Positions 675 to 63,184 of a stretch of DNA of 64,000 nt are shown here, one piece after another; within the stretch, counting starts at the first letter, position 1; each line of letters starts with the position of its first letter. The position numbers and the translations under genes are program-made. The notes below the pieces were generated by a model. The model was not told where the DNA came from, searched no databases, and worked only from the letters and a program-made list of their open reading frames with translations. The DNA is from Candidatus Puniceispirillaceae bacterium (lineage in GTDB: Bacteria; Pseudomonadota; Alphaproteobacteria; Puniceispirillales; Puniceispirillaceae). The stretch covers positions 116 through 64,115 of the forward strand of contig JBMHBX010000067.1 in assembly GCA_049890215.1 (NCBI GenBank), written 5' to 3'.

Positions 675-724
675 TCACAAGGCATAATGTCAGGGACAGG
701 CCATAGCTATTAGGGGTAGATGAA

Positions 725-2074: not shown

Positions 2075-2281
2075 GTGAAAGGCAAATTTGCATAACGGAA
2101 AAACTTGCCAGTTTTGCCAGACAATGCTATGGACATACTATTTACAAGATTACCTTGAGGCCGAAAGGCATCATGGTTGTGTGAGTTCGCGTAGTGAATA
2201 CTGGGTTTACTCATGGTCAAACTGTTAAGATTCGCTTTTGATCAAGCCGCTAGGTTTGTTCATCTTTTTGGGAGCATAGAA

Positions 2282-2848: not shown

Positions 2849-2873
2849 ACAGACGTCACAAAATTTGATGAAA

Positions 2874-2905
2874 AAGGCCTTGCCGTTTGCAAGGCCTTTT
2901 TTTTG
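2874..2905 (+). terminator. Rho-independent terminator after pal
   Basis: The stem AAGGCCTTGC/GCAAGGCCTT has a 5-nt loop and is followed by a run of about 7 T. Confidence 0.8.
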
Positions 2906-3027
2906 CCCTATTGTAAGGCTAAGGGTGATTCATGGTTTGTGTGTTGTGCATTATTTATGCGGGCGCATAGTCAATCAAAAGATAACCCGGTCAAGTGGTC
3001 ATATTGTGTTCAAGAAGGTGTATAAAG

Positions 3028-4221: not shown

Positions 4222-5524
4222 CCGTCTGTGTCATCTGGCGGATTTATGCACCTCGCTTGTGGCGGATATTGCGCATGCACCTGATTCAAAATCGTGGTTT
4301 GTTGCTTTATCAGGCGGCGCCGATTCTACAGCCCTTTTGCATGTTTTGAGCCAGATCGCACAAAGGCATAAAGCCAGCCTGACAGCGTTAATCGTCAATC
4401 ATAATTTGCGCGAAGACGCCGCACAAGAAGCTGAATTAGTCGCACAAAGATGCCATGACAGACAGATTGACTCTGTCATTTTGACCATCTCGCAAACAGC
4501 GCCAAAATCAGGGCGTCAGGAATGGGCAAGAGCACAAAGATATGCGCTTTTATGTGATCATGTGCGCCGCCATGGCGGGGTGCTGTGGCTTGGTCATCAT
4601 ATGCATGACCAACAGGAGACCATTGCCATGCGTCTTGCCAGAGATAGCGGTCTTGCCGGATTGTCAGCGATGCGCCCAACCCATCACCGCGATGGTGTTT
4701 ATGTATTGCGTCCTTTTTTAACAGTCCCCAAATCAGATCTGATTGCAATTTGCCAGTCACAAAACATCTTATTTGTTGCGGATCCGTCAAATGAAAATCG
4801 TGCTTTTGAGCGCGTCAGATGGCGACAAATCCTTGACCATGACAGGCCATTAGCCGGTATGCTGACACGCATGGGCCTTGTGTCCGGGGCGATTGCCACC
4901 TCTGTAGCAGACGCCATAAAGCCATTTTTCACCCATCATGTCAGCTATAGTTGGTCACAATTATCTGTGATGATAGACAAAAAGGCGTTTCACACATTGC
5001 CAGAGACAGCGCGTTTGCTTGTTTTGCGCCACTTGCTTGTACATATCGGGCATCATCATTATCCGCCATCTTTTGCCTCTGTCAGGAACATCCTGCAAAC
5101 AGACAAAGGGACGGAACAGACAGTCACCTCAACACTTGCAGGCTGCCTTATCAGGCAATCTGCGGATAGTGTGATGATATTTCCTGAGGCAGGGCGTCCT
5201 CATGCGCCCCTGTTTGTGCAGGCAGGCAAGACAATTTGTTATCGTGGCCGGTTTATCATCTATACGCCGCACGATATCATGGTGCATCCTTTATGTGACA
5301 AGCGCTTATCATCCTTATCACAAGATAATCACTATCGCGCTGATTTAATGCGCTATGGCAAAGAAGAAAGGCTTATATTTCCTTTGCCGGTGGCACTTGA
5401 CGAAACACCTATCACTCCCCACATTAAAGACGTAGTGCATATGGGCTATCTCAGCCAGTTGGATTGGTCAGATGATGAAGTTGCCATCTACCCCCTTGGT
5501 CGGTTAGCAATGACCCATATGTAA
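4199..5524 (+). CDS. tilS: tRNA(Ile)-lysidine synthase TilS
   Basis: It carries the PP-loop motif LSGGADSTALL. The tilS-ftsH adjacency is widely conserved. Confidence 0.85.
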   Translation: MKPLVRGSRLCHLADLCTSLVADIAHAPDSKSWFVALSGGADSTALLHVLSQIAQRHKASLTALIVNHNLREDAAQEAELVAQRCHDRQIDSVILTISQTAPKSGRQEWARAQRYALLCDHVRRHGGVLWLGHHMHDQQETIAMRLARDSGLAGLSAMRPTHHRDGVYVLRPFLTVPKSDLIAICQSQNILFVADPSNENRAFERVRWRQILDHDRPLAGMLTRMGLVSGAIATSVADAIKPFFTHHVSYSWSQLSVMIDKKAFHTLPETARLLVLRHLLVHIGHHHYPPSFASVRNILQTDKGTEQTVTSTLAGCLIRQSADSVMIFPEAGRPHAPLFVQAGKTICYRGRFIIYTPHDIMVHPLCDKRLSSLSQDNHYRADLMRYGKEERLIFPLPVALDETPITPHIKDVVHMGYLSQLDWSDDEVAIYPLGRLAMTHM

Positions 5525-5598
5525 CTAGCGAACATGCTTATTGATGTATGATGACATGAATAAGAGACAAACATATTACTGAAAAAAGGTTAGCCTTC

Positions 5599-7536
5599 GT
5601 GAATAATCTCGGCCGCAACATATTTATTTGGGTGATCATCGGTATCGCGCTGATGTCACTGTTCAACCTGTTCCAGAATCCTGCCTCAACCGGCTCAGGG
5701 CGCAATGTGGCATATACAGATTTTGTTGCCTCTGTGCAGTCGGGTCAGGTGCGTGATGTGGTCATTGAAGGGGCGAATATCAAAGCTCGTACCAAAGATA
5801 ATCAGCAGCTTTCATCTTATGTGCCGGAAGGCGCAGATATTGTCGGTATCCTGACTGATAATGATGTGCGCATAGAAGCACGCCCTGATAGCAGCAATTC
5901 ACCGGGCTTTTTCTCAGTCTTGCTTTCATGGTTCCCTATGTTGTTGTTCATTGGTGTTTGGATTTTCTTTATGCGCCAAATGCAAGGTGGTGGTAAAGGC
6001 GGCGCAATGGGCTTTGGCAAATCACGCGCTAAGCTTTTGACCGAAGCGCATGGGCGGGTCACATTTGATGACGTTGCCGGTATTGATGAAGCAAAAACAG
6101 AATTAGAAGAAGTGGTCGAATTCCTCAAAGACCCCGGCAAGTTTCAGCGCCTTGGCGGCAAAATTCCAAAAGGCGTTTTATTGGTCGGACCACCCGGCAC
6201 AGGTAAGACATTGCTTGCCAAATCAGTTGCAGGTGAAGCCAATGTGCCGTTTTTCTCTATCTCTGGCTCAGATTTCGTTGAAATGTTTGTCGGTGTGGGT
6301 GCCTCTCGTGTGCGCGATATGTTTGAACAAGGCAAGAAAAGCGCGCCATGTATTATCTTTATTGATGAAATTGACGCTGTTGGCCGCCATCGCGGCGCCG
6401 GCCTTGGCGGCGGCAATGATGAACGTGAACAGACCTTAAACCAAATGCTTGTCGAGATGGATGGTTTCGAAGCCAATGAAGGTGTTATTTTGGTCGCCGC
6501 AACCAACCGTCCTGATGTCTTAGATCCGGCATTGTTGCGCCCAGGCCGTTTTGACCGCCAGGTGGTCGTGCCGAATCCTGATTTGCTTGGCCGTGAACGT
6601 ATTTTGAAAGTGCATATGCGTAAAACACCACTTGCCAATGATGTGGAACCACGCGTCATTGCACGTGGCACGCCCGGATTTTCAGGTGCTGATTTGGCCA
6701 ATTTGGTGAATGAAGCGGCCCTTCTGGCAGCGCGTAAAGGCAGACGCACTGTCTCAATGTCTGAATTTGAAGAAGCCAAAGATAAGGTCATGATGGGCTC
6801 TGAGCGCCGTTCTATGGTGATGACAGATGATGAAAAGCGTCTGACAGCCTATCATGAAGCAGGGCATGCGGTGGTAGCGCTTCATCTGCCTGCCTCTGAT
6901 CCGATCCACAAAGCAACCATTATTCCACGCGGCCGTGCGCTTGGTATGGTCATGCGCCTGCCCGAAGGTGACCGTGTGTCACTTGCTTTTGATAAGATTT
7001 TGGCAGATTTGCGTGTTGCTTGTGGTGGCCGTATTGCAGAAGAGCTGATTTTTGGCGCTGAGAAGATCACAACAGGCGCCTCATCAGATATCCGCATGGC
7101 AACTGACATGGCGCGGCGCATGGTCACAGAATGGGGCATGTCTGATAAGCTTGGTTTCCTTGCTTATTCAGGTGATGAGCAGGAGGTCTTTTTGGGCCGG
7201 TCTGTCACACAGCAAAAAACAGTCTCAGAAGGGACCGCAGATCTGATCGATGCCGAAGTGCGCCGGATTGTTGATGAAGCTTATGATGATGCTGAAAAGC
7301 TTCTGAAAAAGCATGGTGATCAGCTTGAAAATCTGGCTCAGGGCTTGCTTGAATATGAAACCTTAAATGGTGAAGAGATCAAAATCATTGTCGAAGGTGG
7401 CACAATTTCGCGCAAAGATGGCACGGATGATGAACCTTCAGAGCCACGCGCCAAAAAGCCGCGTTCCGGCCTGCCATCTGGCGGCAGGCGGTCTGCAAAG
7501 CCATCTTCTGAGCCTGCAGGACCTGATGGCACTTAA
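5599..7536 (+). CDS. ftsH: ATP-dependent zinc metalloprotease FtsH
   Basis: It has an N-terminal TM segment, Walker A GPPGTGKT, an AAA second region of homology and the zinc motif HEAGHA. Confidence 0.97.
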
Positions 7537-37672: not shown

Positions 37673-38630
37673 GTCTTGCTTCCTTATCAGCAGAATCCAG
37701 CATTTTATCGTCCGGTATTTTTTCGTCCTGAGTCTGTTTTTGGGGCAGTGCGCGGCCGAGGCGCCTGATTTCCCACCTGAGGTGAATACCGCTTTTATCA
37801 AGCACTCTGGCTCTGACAGTCTCACCAAGCGCCTCAATATCCCTGGCCGTGGCATGACCGTGATTGATCAGAAAATTACAATGCTTATCATTCATACTGG
37901 CATCACCAATGCGCAGGCCGCGGCAGCCTGCTTCATCAATCACCTGCCATGCCTTATGCCCCTCAGGATTGGCAAAAGTAGATCCGCCAGTGCGCACACC
38001 CTGCGGCTGTGTTCTGGCACGCATTTGCAGCATCTCTCTCATTTCCGCTTTGATTTGTGCGCTCTCACCCTTTGTGGTTCTGAAGGTGGCTGATAAAAAG
38101 ATCATCTGCTCATCGACATTAGTATGGCGATAGGCCATGCCCATTTCGAGCGGTGTCATCTGGTGGATAGTGCCCTGTTTGTCCATCATACGCGCGCTGA
38201 TAACAACATCCTTGAATTCAGAGCCATAACAGCCTGCATTCATACGAAGCCCGCCACCTATCGTGCCTGGAATTGATACAAGGAAAGAAAGCCCTGCCAT
38301 GTTATGGCGGGCGGCAAAACGCGCAAGATCAGCATCTGTCGCGCCTGCCCCTGCGATGATATGGTCTTGCTCACACGATAATTGCGAGAAGGCACCGCAA
38401 AGCCTTATGACCGCCCCTTCAATACCGCCATCTCTTATCAGCATATTAGAGCCGGCGCCCAAAATAGTGACAGGCATATCTTTTGGAATGGCTTTCAGGA
38501 ACGCAGCCAAATCAGCTTCGTCAGCTGGTTCAAAATAGAGATCAGCCTTACCACCCACACCAAGCCATGTGCGTGTTTCAAGCACCTCATCTGTCAGAAT
38601 AAGGCCGCGCAGGGCAGTGGTATCAATCAT
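37665..38630 (-). CDS. murB: UDP-N-acetylenolpyruvoylglucosamine reductase MurB
   Basis: It has the FAD-binding region [13 protein letters not shown] and the motif GGSTFANP. Confidence 0.93.
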
Positions 38631-40057
38631 GATGCTGCTGCCCCCTTATCTAATAGAGACTCCAGTTCTGCCGGCAGACCGGCTGCCCAATTTGTGATAG
38701 AGCCGGCGCCAAGGCACATGACAATATCTCCTTTTTGGGCATGCTTTGCGACCATCTCAGCAAGTGCCTCTGGTGCTGAAAGGGCAAAAGTGTTGCGATG
38801 GCCGGAGGCTTGCAACCCTGCGACCAAATCATCTTTGCCAAAGCCGTCAATTGGCGCCTCTCCGGCGGCGTATACATCTGCGACAATGACGATATCTGCC
38901 TCATTAAAGCAGTGGCAGAAATCATCAAATAAATCTCTCAGCCGGCTATAGCGATGTGGTTGCACCACCGCGATTAATTTGCCGTCATTAACCTTCATGC
39001 GCCCTGCATTCAGGGCGGCTGAAATTTCAACAGGATGATGCCCGTAATCATCAATCACGGTAATGCCATGCGCCTGTCCTTTAATGTCAAAGCGTCTGCC
39101 AACCCCTTTGAATTGTGCAAGCGCATTGCGGATAACGTCATGATCAATGCCCATTTCAAGCGCAACAGATATAGCGGCAAGCGCATTTTGCACATTATGT
39201 CTGCCAAGCATAGGAAACCGAATATCGCTTATGATTTCAGCCTGACCCATCAGCCTGTCAGACAGATGGATATCAAACAGCATTTTATCATGATCATTTC
39301 TGATATTCACGGCCCTGACATCAGCCATGACAGAGACCCCATAAGAGATAATGCGCCTGTCTCTGATTTTCGGCATTAAGCGCTGCACCGCAGGATGGTC
39401 AATGCAAAGACTGGCAAATCCGTAAAAAGGAATAGAGGCCACGAAATGCTCAAACGCCTGTTCAAGCTTTTCATAATTGCCATGATGGTCAAGGTGCTCA
39501 GGGTCGATATTTGTGACAATGGCAGCCGTTGGCTTAAGGCGCGAAAACGACCCGTCACTCTCATCTGCCTCTACGACCATCCATTGCCCGGCGCCTAATT
39601 TAGCATTACTGCCCCAGCTATGAATAATGCCGCCATTGATAACGGTGGGATCAATCCGGGCCGCATCAAGCAAGGTTGCAACCAGTGAGGTTGTTGTTGT
39701 TTTCCCATGTGTGCCTGCGACCGCGACAGACCAGCGAAGGCGCATAAGCTCACCTAACATTTCAGCGCGATGCACCACAGGGATAAATCTCTCACGCGCT
39801 GCCATTAATTCTACATTATCAGGCTGAATGGCAGTTGAGATCACAACAATGGACACATCATTAATATTGCTTGCCTGTTGCGGGATCGTCACAGCGATCC
39901 CTTTTTCTCGCAGGCGTCTGACATTATTATTTTCAGCAATGTCAGATCCCTGAACCTGATATCCTAATTCTGCCAGAATTTCGGCAATCCCACTCATGCC
40001 GATCCCGCCGATACCGGTGAAATGGATTTTCCCAATGCTAAGAGGCAGAGCGGTCAT
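38627..40057 (-). CDS. murC: UDP-N-acetylmuramate--L-alanine ligase MurC
   Basis: Motifs [12 protein letters not shown] and GTHGKTTT are present. Confidence 0.95.
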
Positions 40058-41142
40058 TGAACCTCTCCTGTGACAGCAGATGTTGATAAAGGCAGGCCAG
40101 TCAGCCCGGCAATGGCAGAGGCGGCGCCTTCCTCGGACAGCGTTTTGGCAGTTTCTGCCATTTTGGTGCGTTTATCTGGCTGGCTGATAAGCACAGATAA
40201 GATAGCCGCCAGCTTGTCAGCGCTTGCGTCTTTTTCAGCTATCAGATAAGCGCCGCCCTGATCAGATAATTGTCTGGCATTGCCTGTTTGATGATCATCA
40301 AGCGCCCCTGCAAAAGGCACTAAAATGCTTGGTCTGCCGGCGCTTGCAATCTCTGCAACTGAAGAGGCACCTGCCCGGCTGATGATGATATCAGAGCGGC
40401 GATATAAATCTGCCATATCATGATAAAAACGCGCGACCTCTGCTTTAACGCCGAGCGCCTTATAGGCTTGTTGTAACAGGCTGACATGCTCATCACGGCA
40501 TTGTTGTGATATGCGGATTGTGCGCTTGTCGCTTGGGCGTAGTTGTGAAATTGCCTCTGGTACAATATCGGCGAAAATCTGGGCGCCAAGAGAGCCGCCT
40601 ATGATGGTGATATGACAGCTATCTGATGGCTGATAGGCAGCGATTTCATGGAATTGGCCTCTGACAGGCAGGCCGGTAATTGCCTGCGGGCATGTTTGCG
40701 GCGCGCCTTTGGTATCAGCAAAGGTAAGCGCAATATGATGGGCAAATTTACCAAGCAGACGATTGGCACGTCCCATAATGGCGTTTTGTTCATGCAAAAT
40801 ACATTTTGCACCCATCAGGCGCCCTGCCATCAAAGGTGCCAAAGACGGATAACCACCAAAGCCAATCACACAAGCAGGACGTGACAGGGCAAAACTGGCA
40901 AGTGATTGCAACAGGCCAAATGCAAGGCGTATCAGCCCTGTAAGCTTTGAAAGGAGCCCTGAATTGAAAGGAGACGCAGAGCTGATTTGCCGATAGGTGA
41001 TTTTGCCATCCACCATCGCAACGCCTCTTTTGTCCGTGAATAAAATCACCTGATGACCAGCCGTCTCAAGGATTTCGGCAACCGCCAAAGCAGGGAAGAT
41101 ATGGCCACCTGTTCCACCGGCGGCAAGAATAACCTTAGCCAT
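40054..41142 (-). CDS. murG: Undecaprenyldiphospho-muramoylpentapeptide beta-N-acetylglucosaminyltransferase MurG
   Basis: It has the N-terminal motif [13 protein letters not shown] and lies in the murG position of the dcw order. Confidence 0.93.
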
Positions 41143-42247
41143 CCAAGCCTCCCTCTCTTTGTCTTCGTCTGGTCAAAGCAAGCAGCATCCCAATTGTAAT
41201 ACCACTGGCAAGCAAAGAAGAGCCGCCATAGCTGATAAGTGGCAAAGTCATGCCTTTGGTAGGGATCAAATCAACTGATGAGGCCATATGGATGGCAGCC
41301 TGCAAGCCAAATTGCATGGCAAGGCCGGCCCCGGCAATCAGGCAGAATAAATTATCACCTGCCGCAGAGCGCTCAAATCCGCGAAAGACGGTAAAGCCAT
41401 ATAGCGCAATAATGCCAAGACATACCAACAGCCCATATTCTTCGGCAGCAACAGAAAAAATAAAATCAGCATGCGCATCAGGCAGATATTCTTTAACTTT
41501 GCCATCACCTGGCCCAACACCCAAAAAGCCCCCATCTGCAAATGATCTGATCGATAATTCAGATTGCATCGAGCCGCCATCAAAGAATTTGGTAATGCGT
41601 GATTTTACATGGTCCAGATAATGATAGGCCGCAAATAAGGCGATAGGGGCAAGGCCAATGGCGATTAGAACAAGCAACAAAGGCATGCCTGCCAAAAATG
41701 TCTGGAAACCCCAGGTCATTGCGATAACAGATGTCATGCCAATATCAGGTTGCAAAACCAATATGGCAATGATGATCCCTGCCAGGCTTGTTGCCCATGC
41801 CCAGCCCGGGAAATCGTCATCTTCACGCCATAAAGATAACAACCACGCACAGACAACAGCAAAAAGAGGCTTCGCAAATTCAGACGGCTGTAAATTCACA
41901 GGGCCAATGGTAATCCATCTTGTTGCCCCTTTTACTTCCGGACCAAGGATGAGTGTAAGGCTCATGAGCCCAATCACCCCTAACAGGCCGATCAAAGATA
42001 AAATCCGAATAAGGCGCGGACTCATGAAAGACAGAACAAAAATCGCGACCGCCGCCGGTGCCAGATAGATAAGTTGGCGCCAAACAAAATGGAATTCAGG
42101 CAAAGAAATGCGTGTGGCAACAGGCGGGCTTGCTGCCATGACCATTAAGGTGCCGATCACCATTAATAAGATAGCGGCCATAAGAAGCCACCTGTCGACT
42201 GTCCACCACCAAACACCCAAAAGAGATCTGTCTGTTCTACCGAGCAT
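41135..42247 (-). CDS. ftsW: SEDS-family peptidoglycan polymerase FtsW
   Basis: It is polytopic with about 10 TM segments. SEDS motifs QPSEFAK and LPLISYGGSS are present. Confidence 0.93.
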   Translation of the reverse strand: MLGRTDRSLLGVWWWTVDRWLLMAAILLMVIGTLMVMAASPPVATRISLPEFHFVWRQLIYLAPAAVAIFVLSFMSPRLIRILSLIGLLGVIGLMSLTLILGPEVKGATRWITIGPVNLQPSEFAKPLFAVVCAWLLSLWREDDDFPGWAWATSLAGIIIAILVLQPDIGMTSVIAMTWGFQTFLAGMPLLLVLIAIGLAPIALFAAYHYLDHVKSRITKFFDGGSMQSELSIRSFADGGFLGVGPGDGKVKEYLPDAHADFIFSVAAEEYGLLVCLGIIALYGFTVFRGFERSAAGDNLFCLIAGAGLAMQFGLQAAIHMASSVDLIPTKGMTLPLISYGGSSLLASGITIGMLLALTRRRQREGGLDG

Positions 42248-43565
42248 GGCTGACCTCCTTTAAGGGCTGATGATGTGTGTCAATAAAGGCCTTGGTCAGC
42301 TTGGCAAAATGATCACCCCGCATGCCAAAATTGGCGAATTGATCAAATGAAGCCGCTGCCGGAGATAACAGAACAACTTCAGTCCCATCCAACATATCGG
42401 TTGCATGGGCAAAAGCCTCATCAAGTGTGTCATGATAATGGCAGGTGATATGATCTTTGGCCTGTTCATAAAATGCTTTGGCAGATTCACCAAAGAAATG
42501 GGCTTTGCGTATATGATGAAAATAAGGGGTGCAGGCAGACAGACCCTCTGCTTTGGCGCGCCCGCCGGCAAGCCAGATTATGCTTTCAAACGCAGATAAG
42601 GCCTTGGCGGTGGCATCCCCATTTGTTGCTTTGGAATCATTGATAAAGGGCGTGCCATTGTGGCTGCCAACCGGTTGCAAGCGATGAGGCAGACCAATAA
42701 AGGAGGTTATTGCCTGTTCCATGATATCGCCTGAGACCCCGAAATGACTTGCTATTGCAAGGGCAAAAGCAATGTTCTGCTGATTATGAAGGCCGGCAAG
42801 ATACGGGTTTTGACATAAAGAGGATGGCAGTGATTTGCCGCTAATGGCCTCAATCTGACAGGATAGGTTATCATGCGCCCACGCAAGGACGTCTTTCATA
42901 ATTGGCCCTTCATCACCTATTAGCGCAAGACCGTCCGGCCTTATTGTGATGAGGCTTTGTTTTTTGGCGCTGATATAGCCGTCAAGGCCGCCATGCCGGT
43001 CAAGATGATCCGGCGTAATATTCAGCAATGCTGAAACCTTTGGTGCCAGAGATGGTGTGGTTTCAAGCTGATAGGATGATAATTCCAGCACAGTGAAGCC
43101 ATCTGTTTGTTCCGGCAATGCGCATAAAGGTGTTCCCAGATTGCCGCCAATACCCACCGACAGACCTGCTTCTTTGAGGATATGGCCTGTCAGGGCTGTT
43201 GTTGTGGATTTGCCATTTGTGCCGGTGATGATGATCATCTCACCCCAATTGCCGGTACGAAGGCCAAATTCGACTTCTGAGATAATTTCCACCTGATGAT
43301 CTTGCGCCATCTTGGCAACAGGATGGGGGGCAGGGTGGTGATGGGCAATGCCAGGGCTGAGGATAAGCGCCTCAATCTGAGAGAAATCCCACTCTTGGAA
43401 GGATATAAAATCATGATCTGCAATCGTCTCATAAGCTGTCATATGGTCATCATCAATGACACAAGATATCCCTAAATCACGCGCACGCGCATAGGCCGCA
43501 CGTCCTGACAGGCCGGCGCCGAAAATCGCGATATGCTGAAAAGATGTCTTATGCCTCATTGTCAT
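42237..43565 (-). CDS. murD: UDP-N-acetylmuramoylalanine--D-glutamate ligase MurD
   Basis: Motifs IFGAGLSGRA and GTNGKSTT are present. The start was trimmed to the Met at MTMRHK, because the ORF-track start would overlap mraY by 88 nt. Confidence 0.9.
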   Translation of the reverse strand: MTMRHKTSFQHIAIFGAGLSGRAAYARARDLGISCVIDDDHMTAYETIADHDFISFQEWDFSQIEALILSPGIAHHHPAPHPVAKMAQDHQVEIISEVEFGLRTGNWGEMIIITGTNGKSTTTALTGHILKEAGLSVGIGGNLGTPLCALPEQTDGFTVLELSSYQLETTPSLAPKVSALLNITPDHLDRHGGLDGYISAKKQSLITIRPDGLALIGDEGPIMKDVLAWAHDNLSCQIEAISGKSLPSSLCQNPYLAGLHNQQNIAFALAIASHFGVSGDIMEQAITSFIGLPHRLQPVGSHNGTPFINDSKATNGDATAKALSAFESIIWLAGGRAKAEGLSACTPYFHHIRKAHFFGESAKAFYEQAKDHITCHYHDTLDEAFAHATDMLDGTEVVLLSPAAASFDQFANFGMRGDHFAKLTKAFIDTHHQPLKEVSHAR

Positions 43566-43582
43566 GATGATGAAATGGCCTC

Positions 43583-44671
43583 CTATCTCAGCTTTAGGGT
43601 TGACAGGGCGACAAGCGCCAAAATGACAGAGATGATCCAAAACCGAATGACGATGGTCGGTTCTGCCCATCCCTTTTTCTCAAAATGATGATGAAGGGGC
43701 GCCATCAGGAAGATACGCTTACCTGTTAATTTGAATGAGGCGACTTGCAGGATAACAGAGACGGTTTCAAGCACAAATAAACCACCTGTGATGGCAAGAA
43801 CCAATTCGTGACGTGTGGCAACTGATATCACCCCCAAAGTGCCGCCAAGGGCAAGCGAGCCTGTATCTCCCATAAAGACTTTAGCAGGCGGTGCATTAAA
43901 CCATAAAAAGCCAAGGCCGCCGCCAATGAGCGCCCCGCATACCACCGCCAATTCACCTGTTCCGGCAATGTAGTTTATTTGCAGATAATCAGCGAAGTTC
44001 AGATTACCTGACAAATAGGCAATCAGGGCAAATACAGAGGCCGCTATCATCACAGGCACAATGGCAAGCCCGTCTAGCCCGTCTGTCAGATTGACAGCGT
44101 TCGATGCGCCAACAATGACCACAAGGGCAAAGGGCACATAAAAATAAGACAGATATAATAGAGTGTCTTTCAGGAAAGGCAGTGCAATGCCATAACGCAA
44201 TTCTTCTGGTGACAGTTCCACCAGATATAAGGTCGCAAGCAGTGCTAACATAATTTGCAGCATAAATTTCTGATAAGAGCGCAAACCAGCTGAGCTTCGT
44301 TTTTTCAGCTTTAGCCAGTCATCAATAGCGCCTATGGCGCCAAAGCCGGTTGCGACAATCAGAACAGGCCATAAATAGCTGTTATCGAGCGGTACCCATA
44401 ATAAGGTAGATATCACAAACACCCCTAAAATCAGCAAACCGCCCATGGTTGGTGTGCCGGCTTTTGTTAATATATGACTTTCAGGCCCGTCTGAGCGAAT
44501 AGGCTGACCTTCTGCCTGATGCGATTTCAGCCATCTGATAAAGGCCTCACCAAATAACAGGCTCAGCAACAACGCGGTCATGACAGCGCCGCCTGTACGA
44601 AAGGTCAGATACCGGAACAGATTTAGCGGCTGAAACTGATCAGCAAAGGGCAATAGAAGGTCAGGTAACAT
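43583..44671 (-). CDS. mraY: Phospho-N-acetylmuramoyl-pentapeptide transferase MraY
   Basis: It has FRYLTFR and [13 protein letters not shown] and is polytopic. The start was chosen at the Met 6 nt after GGAGG. Confidence 0.95.
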
Positions 44672-46076
44672 CATGCGCCTCCGCTTTATCATTTTGTATG
44701 GTAAGGGCGCTCAGCAATCGCGCCATCTGCGGCGCACCAGAGCCATTTGACCCTTTGATGAGAATCAAGTCGCAATCTGCTAACAGGCCATGCAGCTTAT
44801 CCTTTGCCTCATCTGCAGAGCCAAAGGCAGAGATATCGCCGTCTATGTGAATAGAAGAAGCAAGCGCTGACATTGCAGGCCCAATCAGAATAAGACGCTG
44901 AGGGCCGGTTGCCCTAATCAGCGGGATCAAAGATTGATGCGCCTCATCACTCATATGCCCTAATTCAAGCATATCTGTCAGAACAATGCCTTTTTTGGCA
45001 TGTGTCAGGCTTGCAATATGCTGTAAAGAGGCTGCCATAGAAGCAGGGCCGGCATTGTAGCTGTCATTGATAAATAAGGCAGTTTTCTGGCCTAGATTTA
45101 CAAAGCTCTGATCACCGCGCCCTGTGACCTCTTGTAACTGTGCCAGCTTTGTTTCTGCCATCTGCCATGGCAGGGATAAAGCATGTAAAGTCGCAATCGC
45201 AATCATCGCTGTGGTGGCATGATGAGGGGCTGACAAGCCAAGGGTGAAAGTCAGACTCTCGCCGCTTAAGTGGTTATAAAGGCTCAATGACTGGCCTTTT
45301 TCAAGACTGGCCTGTTTGATAAGCTGTATATCTGCCCCTTTGCCTGTCCCAAAAGTGATGAGGTGAAGGCCTTTGGCTTTGGCTTTATCACGCAAAATAT
45401 CGAAATGCGCATCATCATAAGGCAAAATAGCTGTGCCATCTGTCATGCCATCAAAAATCTCAGCTTTGGCACAAGCAATATCACCAAGGCTGTCAAAATG
45501 CCCGATATGGCTATTGGCGATTTTGGTAATGATCGCAACATCACCATGATAAAGATACGAAAGAGGGCTAATCTCACCTTTGTGATTCATGCCCATTTCC
45601 ATGACAATCAAATCACAATCATCTGGTGTTCTTGCCATCGATAGGGGGGCGCCAATGTGATTATTATAATTACCCCGGCTGGCATGGCAGTTGCCATAAC
45701 ATGATAAAATAGTATCAAGCGCCTCTTTGGTGCTTGTTTTGCCAACAGAGCCTGTGATGGCAATTTTCTTTGCCGTTGTTTGCGCCATGGCGGCTTTGGC
45801 AATATCATGCAGTGCTGATAATGTATCAGGGACTTTTAACTGAGCGCAACATGCGCCGTCAAATTGACGTGATACAAGTGCGCAGTGGCCCATCGTTAAA
45901 TCAGCCACAAAGTCATGGCCATCATGATGATTGCCTTTCAAGGCAATAAACAGGCCTGTTTTATCAAGATTACGATGGTCAATTTCCACCTGTTCAAGTG
46001 GCAAAACAGGCGCTGGCCCGTGCCAGATGCCAGAGGTAATTTGCGCCAAATCTGAGGCTGTCCAATTTGTGATCAT
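44661..46076 (-). CDS. murF: UDP-N-acetylmuramoyl-tripeptide--D-alanyl-D-alanine ligase MurF
   Basis: It has the Mur ligase P-loop [10 protein letters not shown] and lies between murE and mraY. Confidence 0.92.
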
Positions 46077-47560
46077 GCACCCCCCTTTGCCGGCAAAAAG
46101 GCAAGGGCTGCGCGCGCTACCGCCGCATCATCAAAAGGAAGCGTCTCATGACCTACGGTTTGTGTGGTCTCATGCCCTTTACCGGCAATCAAAAGACAAT
46201 CACCTTCTTTTAAGGAATCAATGGCCACTTGGATAGCAGCTTTACGATTAGCGATTTCTGTGAATTTTTCCGGTTTGTCTGCCATGATGGCAGCGCGGAT
46301 AGCGGCCGGATCTTCACTTCGCGGATTATCATCAGTGATATAAATATGATCAGCAAATGCAAGCGCCTGTGCGCCCATCATCTCTCTTTTTCCGGCATCT
46401 CTGTCACCGCCGCAACCAAACAGGACATGTAAATCACCTGTTGTCTCTTCGCGCAATAATCGCAAAGCATTGGCAAGCGCATCAGGCGTATGGGCATAAT
46501 CAACCAGAATACGGGCGTTTAACGGGTGGCCATGAACAGGCTGCATGCGCCCTGCAATGGGCTGTAAATGCGGCAGAGCGCCAAGAGCATCATGAAGTGA
46601 CAGGCCCGACAAATGCGCAAGCAAAGCGGCCAATATTGCATTCTCAGCCTGAAAACGCCCCATCAAAGCAATCGGGTATTGATAGGATTTGCCGTCATAA
46701 ATAATATGTGAATCAAAGCCATAATCTCTTGGCTTGAGGTCTTTTATCTGCAGATCTGCCCCATCAGAGGCACCGATGGTTTTGATCACAAGAGGCCTGT
46801 CTTTGATAGCCTTTGTGATTTTTTTACCATAAGGGTCATCATGATTAATCACGGCCGCACCACCATCTGGCAGAAGGTGGGTAAACAGGCGCAATTTTGC
46901 CTTAAAATACTGGTCCATTGTGCCATGGTAATCAAGATGATCCCGGCTCAGATTGGTAAAGCCCGCAACATGTATCGGCAAAGGGGCAAGCCTGTCTTGC
47001 GCTATGCCATGAGATGAGGCCTCTAGTGCAATGCAACGCACCGACTGGCGTGCCAGCTCATCTATGACACGGAACAAATCTTCAGCGCCGGGCGTGGTAA
47101 GCCCTGATGTGGCAAGATGCGGTGTATCAAGGCTTTGTCCTGATTGTGCTGTTTTTGCGCCTAATGTGCCGATAGAAGCGGCCGGCCAGGTAGCTCTTTG
47201 CCATATTTGTCTGACAAATTCTGCCACAGATGTTTTGCCATTTGTGCCGGTGATGGCAATCTGGATGGCAGGGCGTTTTGGCCAGAACCTGGCACAGGCA
47301 AAAGCATAATCATAACGCAGTTGTGGCGAACACAGATAAGGCACAGATAAGCCATCTAACGCAGCCTCGCCGATGATAGCACAGGCGCCATTATCAATCG
47401 CCGCCTGAATATAATCATGCCCGTCATGATCATGACCTTTGATGGCAACAAATACCATGCCGGGGCGAATGCGCCGTGAATCAGCGCTAATGCCTGTAAC
47501 CCCAACAGACGCCTCAGGCTCATTCATCATGATGTCAGGGAACAGATTACAAAGCTTCAC
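46073..47560 (-). CDS. murE: UDP-N-acetylmuramoyl-L-alanyl-D-glutamate--2,6-diaminopimelate ligase MurE
   Basis: It has GTNGKTS and the DAP-specificity-type motif DNPRSEDP. Confidence 0.93.
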   Translation of the reverse strand: MKLCNLFPDIMMNEPEASVGVTGISADSRRIRPGMVFVAIKGHDHDGHDYIQAAIDNGACAIIGEAALDGLSVPYLCSPQLRYDYAFACARFWPKRPAIQIAITGTNGKTSVAEFVRQIWQRATWPAASIGTLGAKTAQSGQSLDTPHLATSGLTTPGAEDLFRVIDELARQSVRCIALEASSHGIAQDRLAPLPIHVAGFTNLSRDHLDYHGTMDQYFKAKLRLFTHLLPDGGAAVINHDDPYGKKITKAIKDRPLVIKTIGASDGADLQIKDLKPRDYGFDSHIIYDGKSYQYPIALMGRFQAENAILAALLAHLSGLSLHDALGALPHLQPIAGRMQPVHGHPLNARILVDYAHTPDALANALRLLREETTGDLHVLFGCGGDRDAGKREMMGAQALAFADHIYITDDNPRSEDPAAIRAAIMADKPEKFTEIANRKAAIQVAIDSLKEGDCLLIAGKGHETTQTVGHETLPFDDAAVARAALAFLPAKGGA

Positions 47561-49247
47561 TGCCTACCTCCTCTTTGCCAATCCGAATATTTGGCACAAG
47601 ATTCTGGCGAATTTCTGGCGCTGTTTCATCAACAGGCAAGACACCAAGCTTTGGGGCGATTTGTTCAACAATTTGTTTGACCGCAGGCGCTGCCACCCAG
47701 CCCGCTGTGGCATAATTATGAGAGAATTTTTGTCCCTTTGGCTCATCCACCATGACAAAAATCAGATAGGCCGGATCATGGGCAGGGAAGGTGCCAACAA
47801 ACGAGACCATATTTTTCTTTTTGTTATAGCGGCCATTTTCCACTTTTTCCGCAGTCCCTGTTTTGCCGCCGACAAGATAGCCGGGCGCTTCGGCAAAATT
47901 ACCTGTGCCAGCTTTATGAGAGACCACAAGGCGCATCATGCTTCTCACAGCTTTGACATGTTCTTCTGAAAAGATACGTTCTTTCATAATAGGGTCTTGC
48001 GGATTGCGTTTCAGCAAAGTTGGCTGACGGTAAATGCCGTCACCTGATGCTGCCGCGATGGCAGCAGAGGCATGGACAGGCGTTACCGAAATGCCATGAC
48101 CAAATGATATCGTCATAGATTGCACACGTTCCCAATAGCGCGGTGGCAGGGGATTTGATACTTCGGGAAGTTCCAAAGACAGCCTGTCAAGAAGGCCAAG
48201 GCGCCTCATATAAGCTTTTTGGGTCTCTCCGCCAATGGCATCAGCTATGCGCGCAGATCCGATATTTGATGAATAAACCAATATTTCTGACAAGCTCAAA
48301 TCACGCTTCATCATATGGAAATCAGCAATGCGATGACCGCCAATAAATAGCGGCTTTGAGACCTGATAATGTTGGCCCATTCTGGCCGCGCCTGATTCAA
48401 GTGCGATGGCGGTATTCAGCACCTTGAAAATGGAGCCCATTTCAAAAACACCTTTGGTGGCTCTGTTGAAGCGGGCATCATCAACCGCAGCGCCAAAATG
48501 ATTTGGGTTGAAATCTGGCAATGAGGTCAGGCCAAGCAATTCACCAGTCTTCATATCAAGAACCAAACCGGCGCCGCCTATGGCCTCAAAGGCGGTGATT
48601 TGTTTTTGGATTTCTGCGCGCAATATGGCCTGCACACCAACATCAATGGATAAAGCCACAGGCTTGCCTTCTTTGAGGCTTGCATCAAATTGTTTTTCAA
48701 TGCCTGCCAGACCATTGCCGTCAATATCCACTGTGCCAAGGATATGGGCGGCTTCATTGCCATGCGGATATAGCCTTGTTTTGGTGGGCGTCATGGCAAT
48801 GCCAGGCAGGCCAAGGCGCATGATCTGTTTTTGCCTGTGATGGGTCAGGCGTCTTTCAAGCTCTATATAGCGTGTCTTTTTGGCAAAATGGCTTAACAAG
48901 CGCTCTTCAGACCATTTCGGCAATAAAGGCGCCAGCTTTTCAGCTGTTTCAAACGGGTCCAGAATTAATTTGGGATCAGCATGCAAAATCATCACAGGCA
49001 AAGAGGTGGCAAGCACTTTGCCATGCCGGTCTGTGATGATACCGCGTTCAATGGCCGCTTTTTGCGGGCTTCTGAATTGTGAGCGTAAATCGGCATTTGT
49101 AGCAAGATAAAAGGCTTTTGCGCCAATGGTGCCAAAACATAAAAAGGCCAAAAATGACCCGAACCATAGCCGCCCGACCGCAATACGCTTTGATTGCGCC
49201 GGTTGCGGCTTTGATGGCCAGATGATTTTACGCCATGATTGCGCCAT
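47547..49247 (-). CDS. ftsI: Division-specific class B penicillin-binding protein FtsI (PBP3)
   Basis: It has an N-terminal TM segment and the transpeptidase motifs SIFK (SxxK), SSN and KTGT. Confidence 0.93.
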   Translation of the reverse strand: MAQSWRKIIWPSKPQPAQSKRIAVGRLWFGSFLAFLCFGTIGAKAFYLATNADLRSQFRSPQKAAIERGIITDRHGKVLATSLPVMILHADPKLILDPFETAEKLAPLLPKWSEERLLSHFAKKTRYIELERRLTHHRQKQIMRLGLPGIAMTPTKTRLYPHGNEAAHILGTVDIDGNGLAGIEKQFDASLKEGKPVALSIDVGVQAILRAEIQKQITAFEAIGGAGLVLDMKTGELLGLTSLPDFNPNHFGAAVDDARFNRATKGVFEMGSIFKVLNTAIALESGAARMGQHYQVSKPLFIGGHRIADFHMMKRDLSLSEILVYSSNIGSARIADAIGGETQKAYMRRLGLLDRLSLELPEVSNPLPPRYWERVQSMTISFGHGISVTPVHASAAIAAASGDGIYRQPTLLKRNPQDPIMKERIFSEEHVKAVRSMMRLVVSHKAGTGNFAEAPGYLVGGKTGTAEKVENGRYNKKKNMVSFVGTFPAHDPAYLIFVMVDEPKGQKFSHNYATAGWVAAPAVKQIVEQIAPKLGVLPVDETAPEIRQNLVPNIRIGKEEVGSEAL

Positions 49248-59324: not shown

Positions 59325-59594
59325 TTGCGCTTTTTGGCAGGGGTAAAGCTGATGATCAGTGCCCCTAACCAACTGGTACGTGGCTTGATAAAGTTCTGCG
59401 CAATCATGCCAATAAAGCGGACAAATAGCATCTCATTTGGTCCCTCCTGCCATGCCAGATAATACTATTGGTTCATCCATTCGCAGACTGGAAATTCTGT
59501 ATTATACGCATATAGTAAAATTTAATTTAGTTTTTATTAATTTTATTGTATAACCAAAATATTTACGAATTCATAAAAAAATAAGGTGGTCACA

Positions 59595-60131
59595 ATGAAA
59601 AACCTAACAATTGTAAAAAGCTCTGTAATTGCATTAGCGATGTTGTCAGCACCGGCTCTTGCGCAGGACTCAGCAGGTGTGCCGTCACTGGCAGATGTGA
59701 TGGGCGCTATGTCATCTGAAGAAGTAACACAGATGGAAGGCGGCGTTTCTGAAGAAGGCGCATTGTCTCTTGATATGGATGTCACCGTTGAATCAGCCGT
59801 GAATGAAGCTATCGAGGATGGTCTGATTACAGCTGATCAGGCAGAAGATGCCGCAGCGTCTCTTGAAATTATTCAGGCAAATGCTGACTTCTTCAATTTC
59901 GATATTCTTGATGCCATTGGTGAAGTGATTGAGAGCGGCGAATTCTCAGTAGAAGAAATCCGTCAGACTCTGGAAGGCTTCAACACATTGTCAGACGCTG
60001 GTAAGGCGCTTGTCGGTAACGAAGAATTTGATGCGACAGACGTAAGTGATGACTCACTTTTCAATCAGCTATCAGATGCTGATAAGCAAATCGTGCTAAC
60101 ACAGATGCCTGTTGTTGGTGACGACCAGTAA
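59595..60131 (+). CDS. Secreted, extremely acidic hypothetical protein (paralog A)
   Basis: AAGGTGG precedes the ATG at 59595. The signal peptide ends ALAQ. The mature part has about 37 Asp/Glu and 3 Lys/Arg by my count. It is clearly a paralog of the next gene. Confidence 0.7.
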   Translation: MKNLTIVKSSVIALAMLSAPALAQDSAGVPSLADVMGAMSSEEVTQMEGGVSEEGALSLDMDVTVESAVNEAIEDGLITADQAEDAAASLEIIQANADFFNFDILDAIGEVIESGEFSVEEIRQTLEGFNTLSDAGKALVGNEEFDATDVSDDSLFNQLSDADKQIVLTQMPVVGDDQ

Positions 60132-60162
60132 GATTATAGGAACATAACGAGAGGAGATCCCG

Positions 60163-60753
60163 ATGCGTAAATTCCTTATTACCGCTGCTGTTGCAGCATT
60201 CACATTGCCAATGGGCGCAATGGCACAAGACGCAGAAGTACCGGCTCTTGCAGATGTTGTAAGCGGTCTTGATGCGACTGAGCTTTCAGACATGGAAACA
60301 TCAGTAACCGATATTGGCTCTATTTCTGCCGATTTTGATGTTGCCATTGATACAGCAGTGGCAGATGCGATTGAAGAAGGTCTCATCTCTGCTGATGAGG
60401 CAACGGACGCAGCTGCCTCATTGAGCATTATTAGCGATAACGCCCAGTTCTTTGATTTCGACATCATCGAGGTGGTTGGTGAAATTATCCAGTCTGGTGA
60501 ATTTGATATTGCTGATATCCGTCAAACACTTGAAGGCTTTAACAGCTTGTCAGATGCTGACAAGGCAATTGTAGGCCAGCAATCATTTGACACCTATGGC
60601 GGTTATTACACATATGCCTGTGACCCAAGCTGTACCTCTCAGCAAATCGCAGACAGAGACCCAGCTGCAAAAGCGCAGTTTGATTCATTGTCAGATGCAG
60701 GTGAGACAATTGTCCTGACACAAATGCCATTGATACAAGACGAAGACGGCTAG
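60163..60753 (+). CDS. Secreted, extremely acidic hypothetical protein (paralog B, with a Tyr/Gly/Cys insertion)
   Basis: A GAGGAG RBS is present and the signal peptide ends AMAQ. It is roughly two-thirds identical to paralog A over a ~76-residue core by hand alignment. Confidence 0.7.
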   Translation: MRKFLITAAVAAFTLPMGAMAQDAEVPALADVVSGLDATELSDMETSVTDIGSISADFDVAIDTAVADAIEEGLISADEATDAAASLSIISDNAQFFDFDIIEVVGEIIQSGEFDIADIRQTLEGFNSLSDADKAIVGQQSFDTYGGYYTYACDPSCTSQQIADRDPAAKAQFDSLSDAGETIVLTQMPLIQDEDG

Positions 60754-60768
60754 GATCGCAAAAAAAAC

Positions 60769-60819
60769 GGGCAGGTACAAAGTCTGAGGCAATCCTACTG
60801 GTGCCTGCCCCCTTTTTTT
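60769..60819 (+). terminator. Hairpin + T7 between paralog B and the barrel gene (candidate attenuating terminator)
   Basis: A 10-bp stem GGGCAGGTAC/GTGCCTGCCC (one G-T pair) encloses a 22-nt loop and is followed by CC + TTTTTTT. Confidence 0.5.
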
Positions 60820-60843
60820 GGCTGAGAGATAAGGTATAAATTC

Positions 60844-62157
60844 ATGTCATATAATATTAAAGCTACCATCGTAGCTGCGTTTTTAATGTTGGCCGCGTTG
60901 CCAATGAGTGCATCAGCCCAATCTGTTTCAGATGCTGATGTTGCAAATCTGCGTGCTGAAGCACAAGATTTGTTGGTTGAAAAGCAGCCAGAAGAAGCAT
61001 TGCGCAAAATTGAACAGGTCATTATTGCAAGACCAACTGATTTGGCGGCACGTTTCTTCCGTGCGCAAATCCTTGTATCTCTGGGCCGCGGCGCCGAAAT
61101 CAGAGATGAATTGCAATTGATGACAACTTTGAACATCCCGGCAGCGGATAAAGAAAAGGCCCGTCAATTGGTTGCGGTCATTGACAAGGCAGGTCGCCGT
61201 TTTTCAGGTACCATCACCCTCAAGGCAGGCTTTGGTTACGGCAATAACGTAAACTCATGGCCAAATGGCGGTGAGACAACCAACTCAAGCGGTATTAACG
61301 CTGCGTTGGGTGACCCTGTCTATAAGAAATATGAGTCAATTGATGATACCATCAGACAAGCTTCTGTCTCATTCAGCGGCTCTTATCTCTTGTCAGAAGA
61401 TCGTAGCCTGAAGACAAATTTTGGCCTGACAACAAGCCAGAAAGAGGCAGGCGATACAGTGTCAATCGACAGCAAAGTTGTTTCAGCACGCCTTGGCCTG
61501 CAAAAAGACTTTGAGACAAACACAACTGTCAAGGTAAACGCCTCTACAACCTCTCTTGATCGTGTGAATGACAAAGACGGCACAGCGGTGACCTCAGACC
61601 TTGATTATGATATTTATGATTTAGATATCTCTCAAAAGGTATTCGGCTCAACAGCGATTGGTGCAAAATACGCAACAAATGCAAGCCGCAATTCAAAGAT
61701 TGCTAACGCCAAGAATTCAGATTCAAACACAAATACAACATCTGTTTATGTCGGTCGTCCGATTGGCGGGACAGCCTATGGCCGCTTGACCTATTCAATG
61801 GCAAAGGCACGCGCTGATCTGGCAAATGAGACTGCCAAGAAAAAGGTCAATAAAGACACCAATACCTTGTCAGCTCTTGTTGTGAAAGTGTTGCCAAATG
61901 ATCAAAGGATTATTGCGACAATCAGCTTTTCAGAGACAGAACATCTGAAAAAGAAGATCAGCAACAAAAACCGTCTTGATAAAAAGAGAAGTCTGACACT
62001 TAGCTATAACATCAAAGGTGATGCTTTATGGTCACGTCTTGAAGGGTTTGATTTCAGTGTCGATGGTTCCATGTCAGAGACAAAATCAAATCAGGCCTCA
62101 GCGCGTGTTCATGCGAAGACAATCATGTTGAACGTATCACGCAAATTTGATCTGTAA
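60844..62157 (+). CDS. Outer-membrane protein: N-terminal TPR-like helical domain + C-terminal beta-barrel (Slam/DUF560-like, tentative)
   Basis: The signal peptide ends ASAQ. Residues ~30-115 are helical and TPR-like. From ~120 to the end I count about 14 amphipathic alternating-residue segments, running from TITLKAGFGYG to AKTIMLNVSRKF. Confidence 0.6.
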   Translation: MSYNIKATIVAAFLMLAALPMSASAQSVSDADVANLRAEAQDLLVEKQPEEALRKIEQVIIARPTDLAARFFRAQILVSLGRGAEIRDELQLMTTLNIPAADKEKARQLVAVIDKAGRRFSGTITLKAGFGYGNNVNSWPNGGETTNSSGINAALGDPVYKKYESIDDTIRQASVSFSGSYLLSEDRSLKTNFGLTTSQKEAGDTVSIDSKVVSARLGLQKDFETNTTVKVNASTTSLDRVNDKDGTAVTSDLDYDIYDLDISQKVFGSTAIGAKYATNASRNSKIANAKNSDSNTNTTSVYVGRPIGGTAYGRLTYSMAKARADLANETAKKKVNKDTNTLSALVVKVLPNDQRIIATISFSETEHLKKKISNKNRLDKKRSLTLSYNIKGDALWSRLEGFDFSVDGSMSETKSNQASARVHAKTIMLNVSRKFDL

Positions 62158-62347: not shown

Positions 62348-63184
62348 ATGGCACTGTCATCCACCTACAGAAAACAGATAGCAGCATTTGTGGAAAGCCG
62401 CGCGATGACAGCTTTTATCACAGCGCTGATTTTGGTGAACGCTGTCACACTTGGCATGGAGACAGATAAAGAGCTAAATGCCTCTTTTGGCAGTGCCTTA
62501 TATTGGGCTGATAAGGTGATATTGGTTATATTTACATTTGAGCTTACTTTGAAATTCATTGCCTATCGGTGGTCTTTTTTTCGCTCCGGATGGAATTTAT
62601 TTGATCTTGCGATTGTAACAATTGCCTGGCTGCCAACTTCGGGCGCCCTCACAGTGCTTCGTGCGCTTCGTATTTTGCGTGTTTTACGTCTCATTTCAGT
62701 TGTGCCACAAATGCGGCGCGTAGTGGCTGCGATTGGTCATTCTATACCTGGCATGGTTTCAGTCGTTGGTGTGCTTGGCCTGATATTTTATGTATCTGCC
62801 GTTCTGGCAACAAAGCTGTTTGGCACGCACCCTGACCCTCATATGCAGGAATGGTTTGGTACGATTAGCGCCTCTGCCTATACCTTGTTCCAGATCATGA
62901 CACTTGAAAGCTGGTCTATGGGCGTGGTGCGACCGACTATGTATTTATTTCCCTTTGCATGGGCTTTCTTTTTGCCCTTTATCATTGTGACAAGCTTTGC
63001 TGTGTTGAATTTTTTTATCGGCATTATTGTGGATTCTATGCAGATGGCGCAAAAGCTCGAAGCACAGGAAAGTGGTGATGATGATGATATGCCAATGACG
63101 AAAAAAGATTATCGTGATCTTGTGATGAGAATCGAACAGATTGCTTCACGCCAGTCAGACAAGCCGATTATCAAAGGTAAGTAA
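62348..63184 (+). CDS. Bacterial voltage-gated sodium channel (NaChBac/BacNav family, single 6-TM domain)
   Basis: S4 carries RALRILRVLR, with four Arg at every third position. The pore filter is FQIMTLESWSMGVVRP. A C-terminal coiled-coil-like tail is present. The protein is 278 aa. Confidence 0.9.
   Translation: MALSSTYRKQIAAFVESRAMTAFITALILVNAVTLGMETDKELNASFGSALYWADKVILVIFTFELTLKFIAYRWSFFRSGWNLFDLAIVTIAWLPTSGALTVLRALRILRVLRLISVVPQMRRVVAAIGHSIPGMVSVVGVLGLIFYVSAVLATKLFGTHPDPHMQEWFGTISASAYTLFQIMTLESWSMGVVRPTMYLFPFAWAFFLPFIIVTSFAVLNFFIGIIVDSMQMAQKLEAQESGDDDDMPMTKKDYRDLVMRIEQIASRQSDKPIIKGK

Follow-up and report, generated by a model that had tools for sequence, protein, structure and literature searches.

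Two tandem genes for hyper-acidic, signal-peptide-bearing proteins (paralogs A and B) in a 64,000-nucleotide stretch of DNA from a Candidatus Puniceispirillaceae bacterium (hereafter, the window) form, together with the outer-membrane protein (OMP) gene directly downstream, an obligate, compact and self-contained envelope cassette. The first-pass annotation described the acidic pair and missed the decisive context, namely, the downstream gene for an OMP combining TPR and barrel regions. We see a roughly even chance that A and B are all-alpha proteins of a new class that serve a divergent Slam-like translocon as cargo or surface partners. The elements of the cassette in the window are as follows:

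59480-59594, plus strand: AT-rich region upstream of A, with an AAGGTGG Shine-Dalgarno sequence and a hexamer pair resembling a promoter (59489-59516)
59595-60131, plus strand: acidic paralog A, 178 aa, ATG start
60163-60753, plus strand: acidic paralog B, 196 aa, with the same plan as A plus an insertion of about 20 residues that carries a Cys pair (CDPSC)
60759-60820, plus strand: GC-rich hairpin followed by a U7 run, between B and the OMP gene (dG -28.5 kcal/mol, z-score -1.9)
60844-62157, plus strand: OMP, 437 aa, with a predicted signal peptide, TPR-like helices (30-117) and a 14-strand beta-barrel (120-436)

The OMP gene lies immediately 3' of the acidic gene(s), on the same strand, in all 16 loci analyzed (the window counted), with two acidic genes in 11 of these loci and a single one in the other 5. 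By contrast, the outer flanks differ from lineage to lineage: mannitol dehydrogenase and an ion channel in the window, an esterase and a transketolase in L003, a nitroreductase and an ABC transporter in the sequenced SAR116 strain HIMB100 (locus L015), an integrase/AlpA/methylase island in L013, and bactofilins and TetR/CorA in L014. Because the flanks vary while the linkage stays, the conserved unit consists of the acidic gene(s) and the OMP gene. No glycosyltransferase or synthase genes accompany the cassette, no TonB-dependent receptor was found near it, and the SAR116 cassette includes no signalling partner, be it a cyclase, a sigma factor or an anti-sigma factor.

The A and B genes are separated by 31 nt, and each is preceded by a good Shine-Dalgarno sequence. 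That of A, AAGGTGG, is located 5 nt 5' of the ATG, and an alternative GTG start (59586) falls within it. The hexamer pair upstream of A is only suggestive of a promoter, and the promoter scan of this region gave a score of 9/12, not above that of shuffled sequences. The hairpin that separates B from the OMP gene may act as a partial terminator or an attenuator; it was overlooked by a simple terminator scan because its loop is long. Non-homologous hairpins, some of them with a T-run, occupy the equivalent position in L001, L010, L007 and L015.

The tandem paralogy of A and B, originally proposed from a hand alignment, was borne out by BLASTP (47% identity, 66% positives, E 8e-54), and the accompanying estimate of about two-thirds identity in the shared core corresponds to 64-68% across an ungapped core of 74-81 residues. 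The claimed hyper-acidity was reproduced as well: mature A contains 37 Asp/Glu and 3 Lys/Arg, for a net charge of about -34 and a pI of about 4, and mature B contains 38 Asp/Glu, 4 Lys/Arg and 2 Cys. Asp and Glu account for 22-24% of the residues of the two proteins, His and Trp are absent, and A and B rank as the top two in acidity among the 54 window ORFs of at least 150 aa.

Both proteins are likely to carry signal peptides of the SPI type. Their N-termini consist of a basic n-region, a hydrophobic h-region and an A-x-A element followed by an invariant Gln, and across 38 homologs this segment varies in sequence while keeping its hydrophobicity, which is the pattern of a signal peptide. Thus, the signal peptides reported previously stand, whereas the cut site does not: because of the -3/-1 rule and the invariant Gln, SPase I is likely to cut directly behind A-x-A, between ALA and QD in A and between AMA and QD in B, one residue earlier than claimed, so that the signal peptide of A would span about residues 1-23. 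The Cys pairs of the B-type paralogs lend further support to the presence of signal peptides. A surface-lipoprotein lipobox (Cys at +1 of the mature protein) is absent from A and B; A has no Cys at all, and both Cys residues of B are internal (CDPSC).

The motif F[ND]xLSDA[GD][KE]x[IL]V indeed occurs twice in each protein, as first noted, at positions 129 and 156 of A and 126 and 173 of B. In a relaxed 12-residue form (F-x-x-L-S-D-A-x-K-x-x-V), it is present in at least 2 copies in all 38 aligned homologs, and profile-profile comparison of copies 1 and 2 across these 38 homologs aligned 12 columns with a probability of 95.5% (E 1.3e-8). A longer internal duplication was rejected: all other segment pairs of A/B had E values of 0.002 or higher, and only the 12-residue motif was significant. 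The C-terminal tail singled out in the same annotation, IV(L)xxQMP(V/L), is conserved family-wide and reads IVLTQMPVVGDDQ in A; as candidate contacts of the TPR domain of the OMP, we single out the N-terminal peptide QDSAGVPSLADVMG and the C-terminal peptide LSDADKQIVLTQMPVVGDDQ. Also invariant in the acidic family are D60, D62 and the FDI segment, as well as P30, L32 and V35 within the post-signal VPSLADV segment. Most of the invariant positions hold hydrophobic or helix-capping residues (F99, F100, F102, L126, G128, F129, L132 and S133).

The CDPSC element of B maps to window positions 60600-60630 (B residues about 147-153). A Cys pair recurs in the second paralogs of L007, L015, L001 and L021 and is absent from the first paralogs; it is either internal (CDPSC) or located at the extreme C-terminus (ECRxPAGSC, CAQNPGGQGC, CSVSC). 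Such pairs are consistent with life outside the cytoplasm. A simple history of one A clade and one B clade was rejected, given that the NJ tree unites the two paralogs of L001 and likewise those of L021; repeated duplication or gene conversion may have shaped the pair. Because the tree groups some pairs by locus, the sequences suggest either that the split between A and B is ancient and was followed by gene conversion, or that the Cys pair was gained more than once.

An AlphaFold2 model of A, built from a 38-sequence alignment, has a mean pLDDT of 73.5, with values above 85 for residues 90-170, and consists of helices 56-74, 80-95, 104-114, 119-130, 134-140 and 161-175, with no strands; A and B are thus predicted to be all-alpha. 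The post-signal segment of A (residues 25-58, including VPSLADV) is conserved and was modelled with low confidence. The initial verdict that the proteins belong to no recognizable family was upheld by searches of Pfam, NCBIfam, PHROGs, PADLOC, PDB profiles and, by Foldseek, PDB and BFVD, none of which returned a confident match. For A and B, the Pfam search yielded only noise (TMP_3, E 0.008; Fae, 0.04), the PADLOC search only JetA at a sub-threshold 0.003 and 14.6 bits, and the PDB-sequence profile search only a 22-residue Fae/Avd helix (E 0.1), whereas the NCBIfam and PHROGs searches placed them in no family. With the model of A, the best Foldseek E values were 6.7 in PDB and 1.1 in BFVD, neither of them a match.

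Homologs of A and B formed 71 clusters in a single-sequence search and 107 clusters in a profile search, with a sharp lower boundary. None of the 107 clusters contains a Pfam domain, and the sole name given to their members is 'hypothetical protein'; as far as these searches reach, the acidic family is unannotated and without detectable relatives. The clusters come nearly all from SAR116/Puniceispirillales or other alphaproteobacterial MAGs. Among 185,579 species, each represented by one genome, the acidic family was found in only 6 loci, all of them in Puniceispirillaceae/Puniceispirillales (SAR116) or unclassified Alphaproteobacteria MAGs. Where it could be computed, and with dS saturated, dN/dS against orthologs at 51-75% protein identity was 0.08-0.11 for A and 0.11-0.25 for B. 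Given these values, A and B are real genes under purifying selection.

The OMP has a pI of 9.3, a signal peptide ending in SASA before a Gln, and the C-terminus ...RKFDL. Its AlphaFold2 model (25 sequences, pLDDT 82.5) comprises five helices (residues 30-117) followed by 14 long strands. Foldseek matched the model best to CymA and OmpG, both of them 14-strand barrels (TM-scores of 0.6-0.74, normalised to the target), and to the TPR-porin PelBC, and the TPR region has weak Pfam matches to TPR_16/TPR_19. Two Arg residues in the TPR domain, R70 and R73, are invariant family-wide and belong, with R37 and R82, to a conserved face, and a crude count of the lumen-facing barrel residues gave 20 K/R versus 9 D/E. 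The homologs encoded directly downstream of acidic genes are 430-450 aa long, and the close OMP family comprises 44 clusters, strain HIMB100 among them; the OMP and acidic families are similarly narrow in distribution.

The predicted architecture of the OMP, a periplasmic TPR domain followed by a 14-stranded barrel, is that of Slam/DUF560 proteins. Direct membership of the window OMP in DUF560 was nevertheless rejected at the Pfam level: neither this protein nor its 24 close homologs matched PF04575 at the gathering threshold or even at E <= 10. An exhaustive search with the OMP profile retrieved 194 relatives at E < 1e-3, the full-length ones at 18-39% identity. When compared with PF04575 SlipAM (cutoff 22 bits), the retrieved relatives P0252, P0189 and P0276 scored 22.4, 20.6 and 19.7 bits, respectively, and P0263 scored 20.7 bits across profile positions 10-288 of 288; other retrieved relatives matched PF24575 TPR_Slam below the threshold. 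An hhalign comparison of the OMP family with the borderline SlipAM proteins gave a probability of 99.8% (E 1e-28) over 384 collinear columns spanning the TPR domain and the whole barrel, a score that is partly built in, the borderline relatives having been chosen with the OMP family's own profile; the SlipAM matches of these intermediates appear to be independent evidence. Our conclusion from these comparisons is that the OMP is probably a remote relative at the fringe of the Slam superfamily, outside PF04575 as now defined, in a family that is unannotated and escapes the DUF560 model.

Type XI secretion systems (TXISS/Slam) are built around a periplasmic TPR domain and a 14-strand barrel, with the cargo encoded beside the OMP (PMC8406197). 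The cargo is either lipidated or soluble with an SPase I signal peptide, and the authors of the TXISS classification predicted 'as-yet-unknown cargo' (PMC8406197). Similar to the Slam/TXISS systems (DUF560, PF04575 SlipAM), such as Neisseria Slam1-TbpB and Xenorhabdus HrpB-HrpC hemophilin, the cassette combines a TPR plus 14-strand OMP with adjacent candidate substrate genes, and the OMP may be linked remotely in sequence to these systems via the borderline SlipAM/TPR_Slam matches. Among the features of TXISS cargo, A and B share the adjacency to the OMP gene (16/16 loci) and, as predicted, the SPI-type N-termini. Other features differ. PF04575 is matched by neither the window OMP nor its close homologs; the candidate cargo is predicted to be all-alpha and is hyper-acidic, whereas known cargo has a C-terminal 8-strand TbpBBD barrel; the cassette lacks a lipoprotein or TonB-dependent receptor partner; and its host belongs to SAR116 and lives free in the sea rather than in association with a host. 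A TbpBBD-type cargo barrel was found neither in the all-alpha model of A nor as a TbpBBD match in Pfam. The cassette is best described as a Slam/TXISS-like translocon with adjacent cargo, in which the candidate cargo is categorically different and the host is a free-living marine bacterium.

Because they are always encoded just upstream of the OMP gene, the acidic proteins are probably cargo of the OMP or its periplasmic partners. We infer a mechanism that covers TPR recognition, translocation, the final location, any part played by cations and any influence of the hairpin on expression. A and B would reach the periplasm via Sec, where signal peptidase I would cleave them. There, the TPR domain of the OMP would engage them, probably through the N-terminal VPSLADV segment and/or the repeated LSDAxK..V motif and the ..QMP tail, and the 14-stranded barrel would pass them across the outer membrane or display them there, much as Slam (type XI) translocons handle cargo encoded beside them. 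Outside the cell, the two proteins would form a strongly anionic, probably cation-loaded layer, soluble or surface-bound; the polyanion might take up cations there, provide a layer of surface charge or act as a decoy. The hairpin between B and the OMP gene might ensure that much cargo and little pore are made. The case for A and B as cargo draws on the obligate linkage, the narrow co-distribution, the architecture of the OMP and its probable remote homology to Slam, and is extended by the presence of an exported acidic protein upstream of related OMPs (see below), the Cys pairs in the second paralog, the excess of basic lumen-facing residues in the crude count and the recurring hairpins. Against it, the link to Slam depends on intermediates that were retrieved with the OMP family's own profile. 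The missing PF04575 matches of the OMP and its close homologs, the all-alpha prediction for A and B and the lack of a TonB-dependent receptor nearby also count against it.

The relatives of the OMP bear on this question from another side. A metagenome scan with a distant OMP subgroup yielded 80 loci. The closer of these encode, immediately before the OMP, an acidic FecR-domain protein of 430-720 aa that bears a signal peptide and has a pI of 4.1-4.5; the two genes are spaced by -3 to +43 nt. Such pairs are found in L017-L040 from marine metagenomes (for example, L019:2496-3995, L025:2424-4001 and L030:1872-3947; PF04773, E 1e-5 to 3e-9), and the FecR protein and the OMP seem to constitute an uncharacterised two-gene module. 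Like the cassette, these pairs combine a full-length homologous OMP with an acidic signal-peptide protein immediately upstream; unlike A and B, to which it has no detectable homology, the upstream partner is larger and bears a FecR domain. Homology between A/B and the upstream FecR-domain proteins was rejected at an hhalign probability of 3%. More distant OMP relatives (470-530 aa) are encoded just 3' of CHASE2 plus adenylate/guanylate cyclase genes (L079:1425-3686, L085, L087 and L043), an arrangement suggestive of a signalling setting for some of the OMP superfamily. FecR and CHASE2 are classic periplasmic signalling parts. Judging from these loci, pairing of the OMP superfamily with an exported acidic partner looks general, and the identity of the partner varies. 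Nothing usable was found in the literature on CHASE2/FecR/TPR-OMP systems or on expression in SAR116/HIMB100.

A single metagenomic contig, L021, carries modules of both types in convergent orientation (172-2987, plus strand; 3473-5883, minus strand), namely, a FecR-type protein with its OMP, and two small members of the acidic family, of 167 and 186 aa, accompanied by a second, 433-aa OMP paralog.

A wider interpretation, which we hold only tentatively and consider somewhat doubtful, is that the TPR plus 14-strand OMPs constitute an unrecognised translocon branch, sister to DUF560/Slam and outside the Pfam model, in which each member would export the acidic protein encoded upstream, small all-alpha polyanions in SAR116 and FecR-domain proteins in other marine bacteria. 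Counting against a cargo role for A and B, the FecR and CHASE2 partners of related OMPs would fit periplasmic signalling at least as well. As the main rival reading, it is conceivable, if unlikely in our judgement, that A and B remain periplasmic and serve the OMP TPR domain as ligands, regulators or plugs, or belong to an envelope-sensing complex, with the barrel serving as a channel, a sensor or the like. TPR domains bind peptides, and the invariant R70 and R73 sit in the TPR domain of the OMP; the pairing of related OMPs with FecR proteins and of more distant ones with CHASE2 cyclases points in the same direction, as does the all-alpha fold predicted for A and B, which is unlike that of known Slam cargo and lacks the shared beta-barrel targeting domain (PMC8406197). 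A net charge of -34 and the presence of two paralogs would nevertheless be unusual for a regulatory ligand, the high expression of the acidic proteins and low expression of the OMP suggested by the hairpin would be more in keeping with a cargo or structural product than with a 1:1 regulator, and the SAR116 cassette is devoid of a cyclase, sigma factor or anti-sigma factor.

Less probable still is a role of A and B as periplasmic polyanions that buffer Ca2+, Mg2+ or trace metals or work as a chaperone, and that are co-regulated with the OMP but have no direct mechanistic coupling to it. Cation binding, with a polyanionic mimic as the alternative, was suggested at the first inspection of the sequence, and the extreme composition, together with the invariance of D60, D62 and the FDI segment, would suit the former. 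Yet, no EF-hand, RTX, calsequestrin-like or other metal-binding domain or fold was found in the Pfam, NCBIfam, PDB profile and Foldseek searches, and the invariant residues are mostly of the hydrophobic and helix-capping kind rather than chelating clusters. The linkage to the OMP in every one of the 16 loci, amid changing flanks, speaks for direct coupling and makes a stand-alone cation buffer less likely. Finally, that A and B are chance reading frames or decaying pseudogenes without a product has practically no chance of being correct, with nothing but the missing annotation in its favour, and is effectively refuted by conservation, given the low dN/dS, the 107 homolog clusters, the good Shine-Dalgarno sequences and the conserved synteny.

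Other systems with dedicated outer-membrane pores resemble the cassette in part. The FapF-FapB/FapC system, which exports functional amyloid in Pseudomonas, and the CsgG-CsgA/B curli system consist of paralogous Sec-exported repeat subunits and a dedicated outer-membrane pore with a periplasmic helical domain, and paralogous Sec-exported repeat proteins are likewise encoded with their own outer-membrane pore in the cassette. However, A and B are acidic and predicted to be helical, whereas the amyloid subunits contain Q/N/G-rich beta-amyloid repeats; these subunits and A/B match neither in sequence nor in fold, and the cassette lacks accessory chaperone or protease genes. The TPR-porin exopolysaccharide exporters PelB, PgaA and BcsC share with the OMP a periplasmic TPR region and a barrel, and PelBC was among the top Foldseek matches; they differ in having 16-strand barrels, long TPR arrays and polysaccharide synthase operons.

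SAR116 is counted among the most abundant heterotrophic clades of the surface ocean (PMC8547437). The envelope and the secreted proteins of this clade have hardly been characterised. If a Slam-like barrel does export A and B, type XI secretion would extend to free-living marine Alphaproteobacteria, would include a cargo fold without the supposedly required C-terminal beta-barrel, and would reach OMPs that go undetected by the current DUF560 model. Should the OMPs indeed form a translocon branch of their own, a type XI-like system would have in A and B its first class of cargo that is not a beta-barrel, and the two proteins would make up an abundant anionic component, at the surface or secreted, of one of the commonest bacterioplankton clades in the ocean. 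If, instead, the two proteins are periplasmic, the family would still define a new partner of an unannotated OMP superfamily. The remark in the first-pass annotation that the C-terminal tail could be a sorting element gains a concrete, testable form from the cassette context, and the presence of the three-gene cassette in the sequenced strain HIMB100 makes the hypothesis directly testable by heterologous reconstitution.

Several additional observations concern the surroundings of the cassette. In some genomes, its neighbours are of an island-like or cell-surface kind: it is found beside genes for an integrase, AlpA and an N6/N4 methylase in L013:3039-6834, beside a gene for a 1,824-aa Flagellin_N/cadherin-like giant protein in L002:2205-7679, and beside a gene for a 7,426-aa giant protein in HIMB100 (L015:1-1856). 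The cassette may be located in variable surface-related regions. In two long-read 'pilon' assemblies (L001:9282-10513 and L012:7335-9400), the OMP gene is frameshifted, and so are the acidic genes in L012. Many neighbouring genes in L001 and L012 are frameshifted as well, and these frameshifts probably reflect assembly error rather than pseudogenisation.

Directly 3' of the cassette, the window encodes a 278-aa single-domain Ion_trans protein (PF00520, E 1.6e-41; 62348-63184, plus strand) that contains an S4-like helix of the form RxxRxxR and may be a voltage-gated cation channel of the bacterial type; an Ion_trans gene is also located about 7 kb downstream in L014, probably by coincidence. 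Elsewhere in the window, the minus strand carries an array of eight tightly packed or overlapping ORFs of 362-566 aa (38627-49247), an arrangement reminiscent of a cell-wall/division (mur/fts) cluster.
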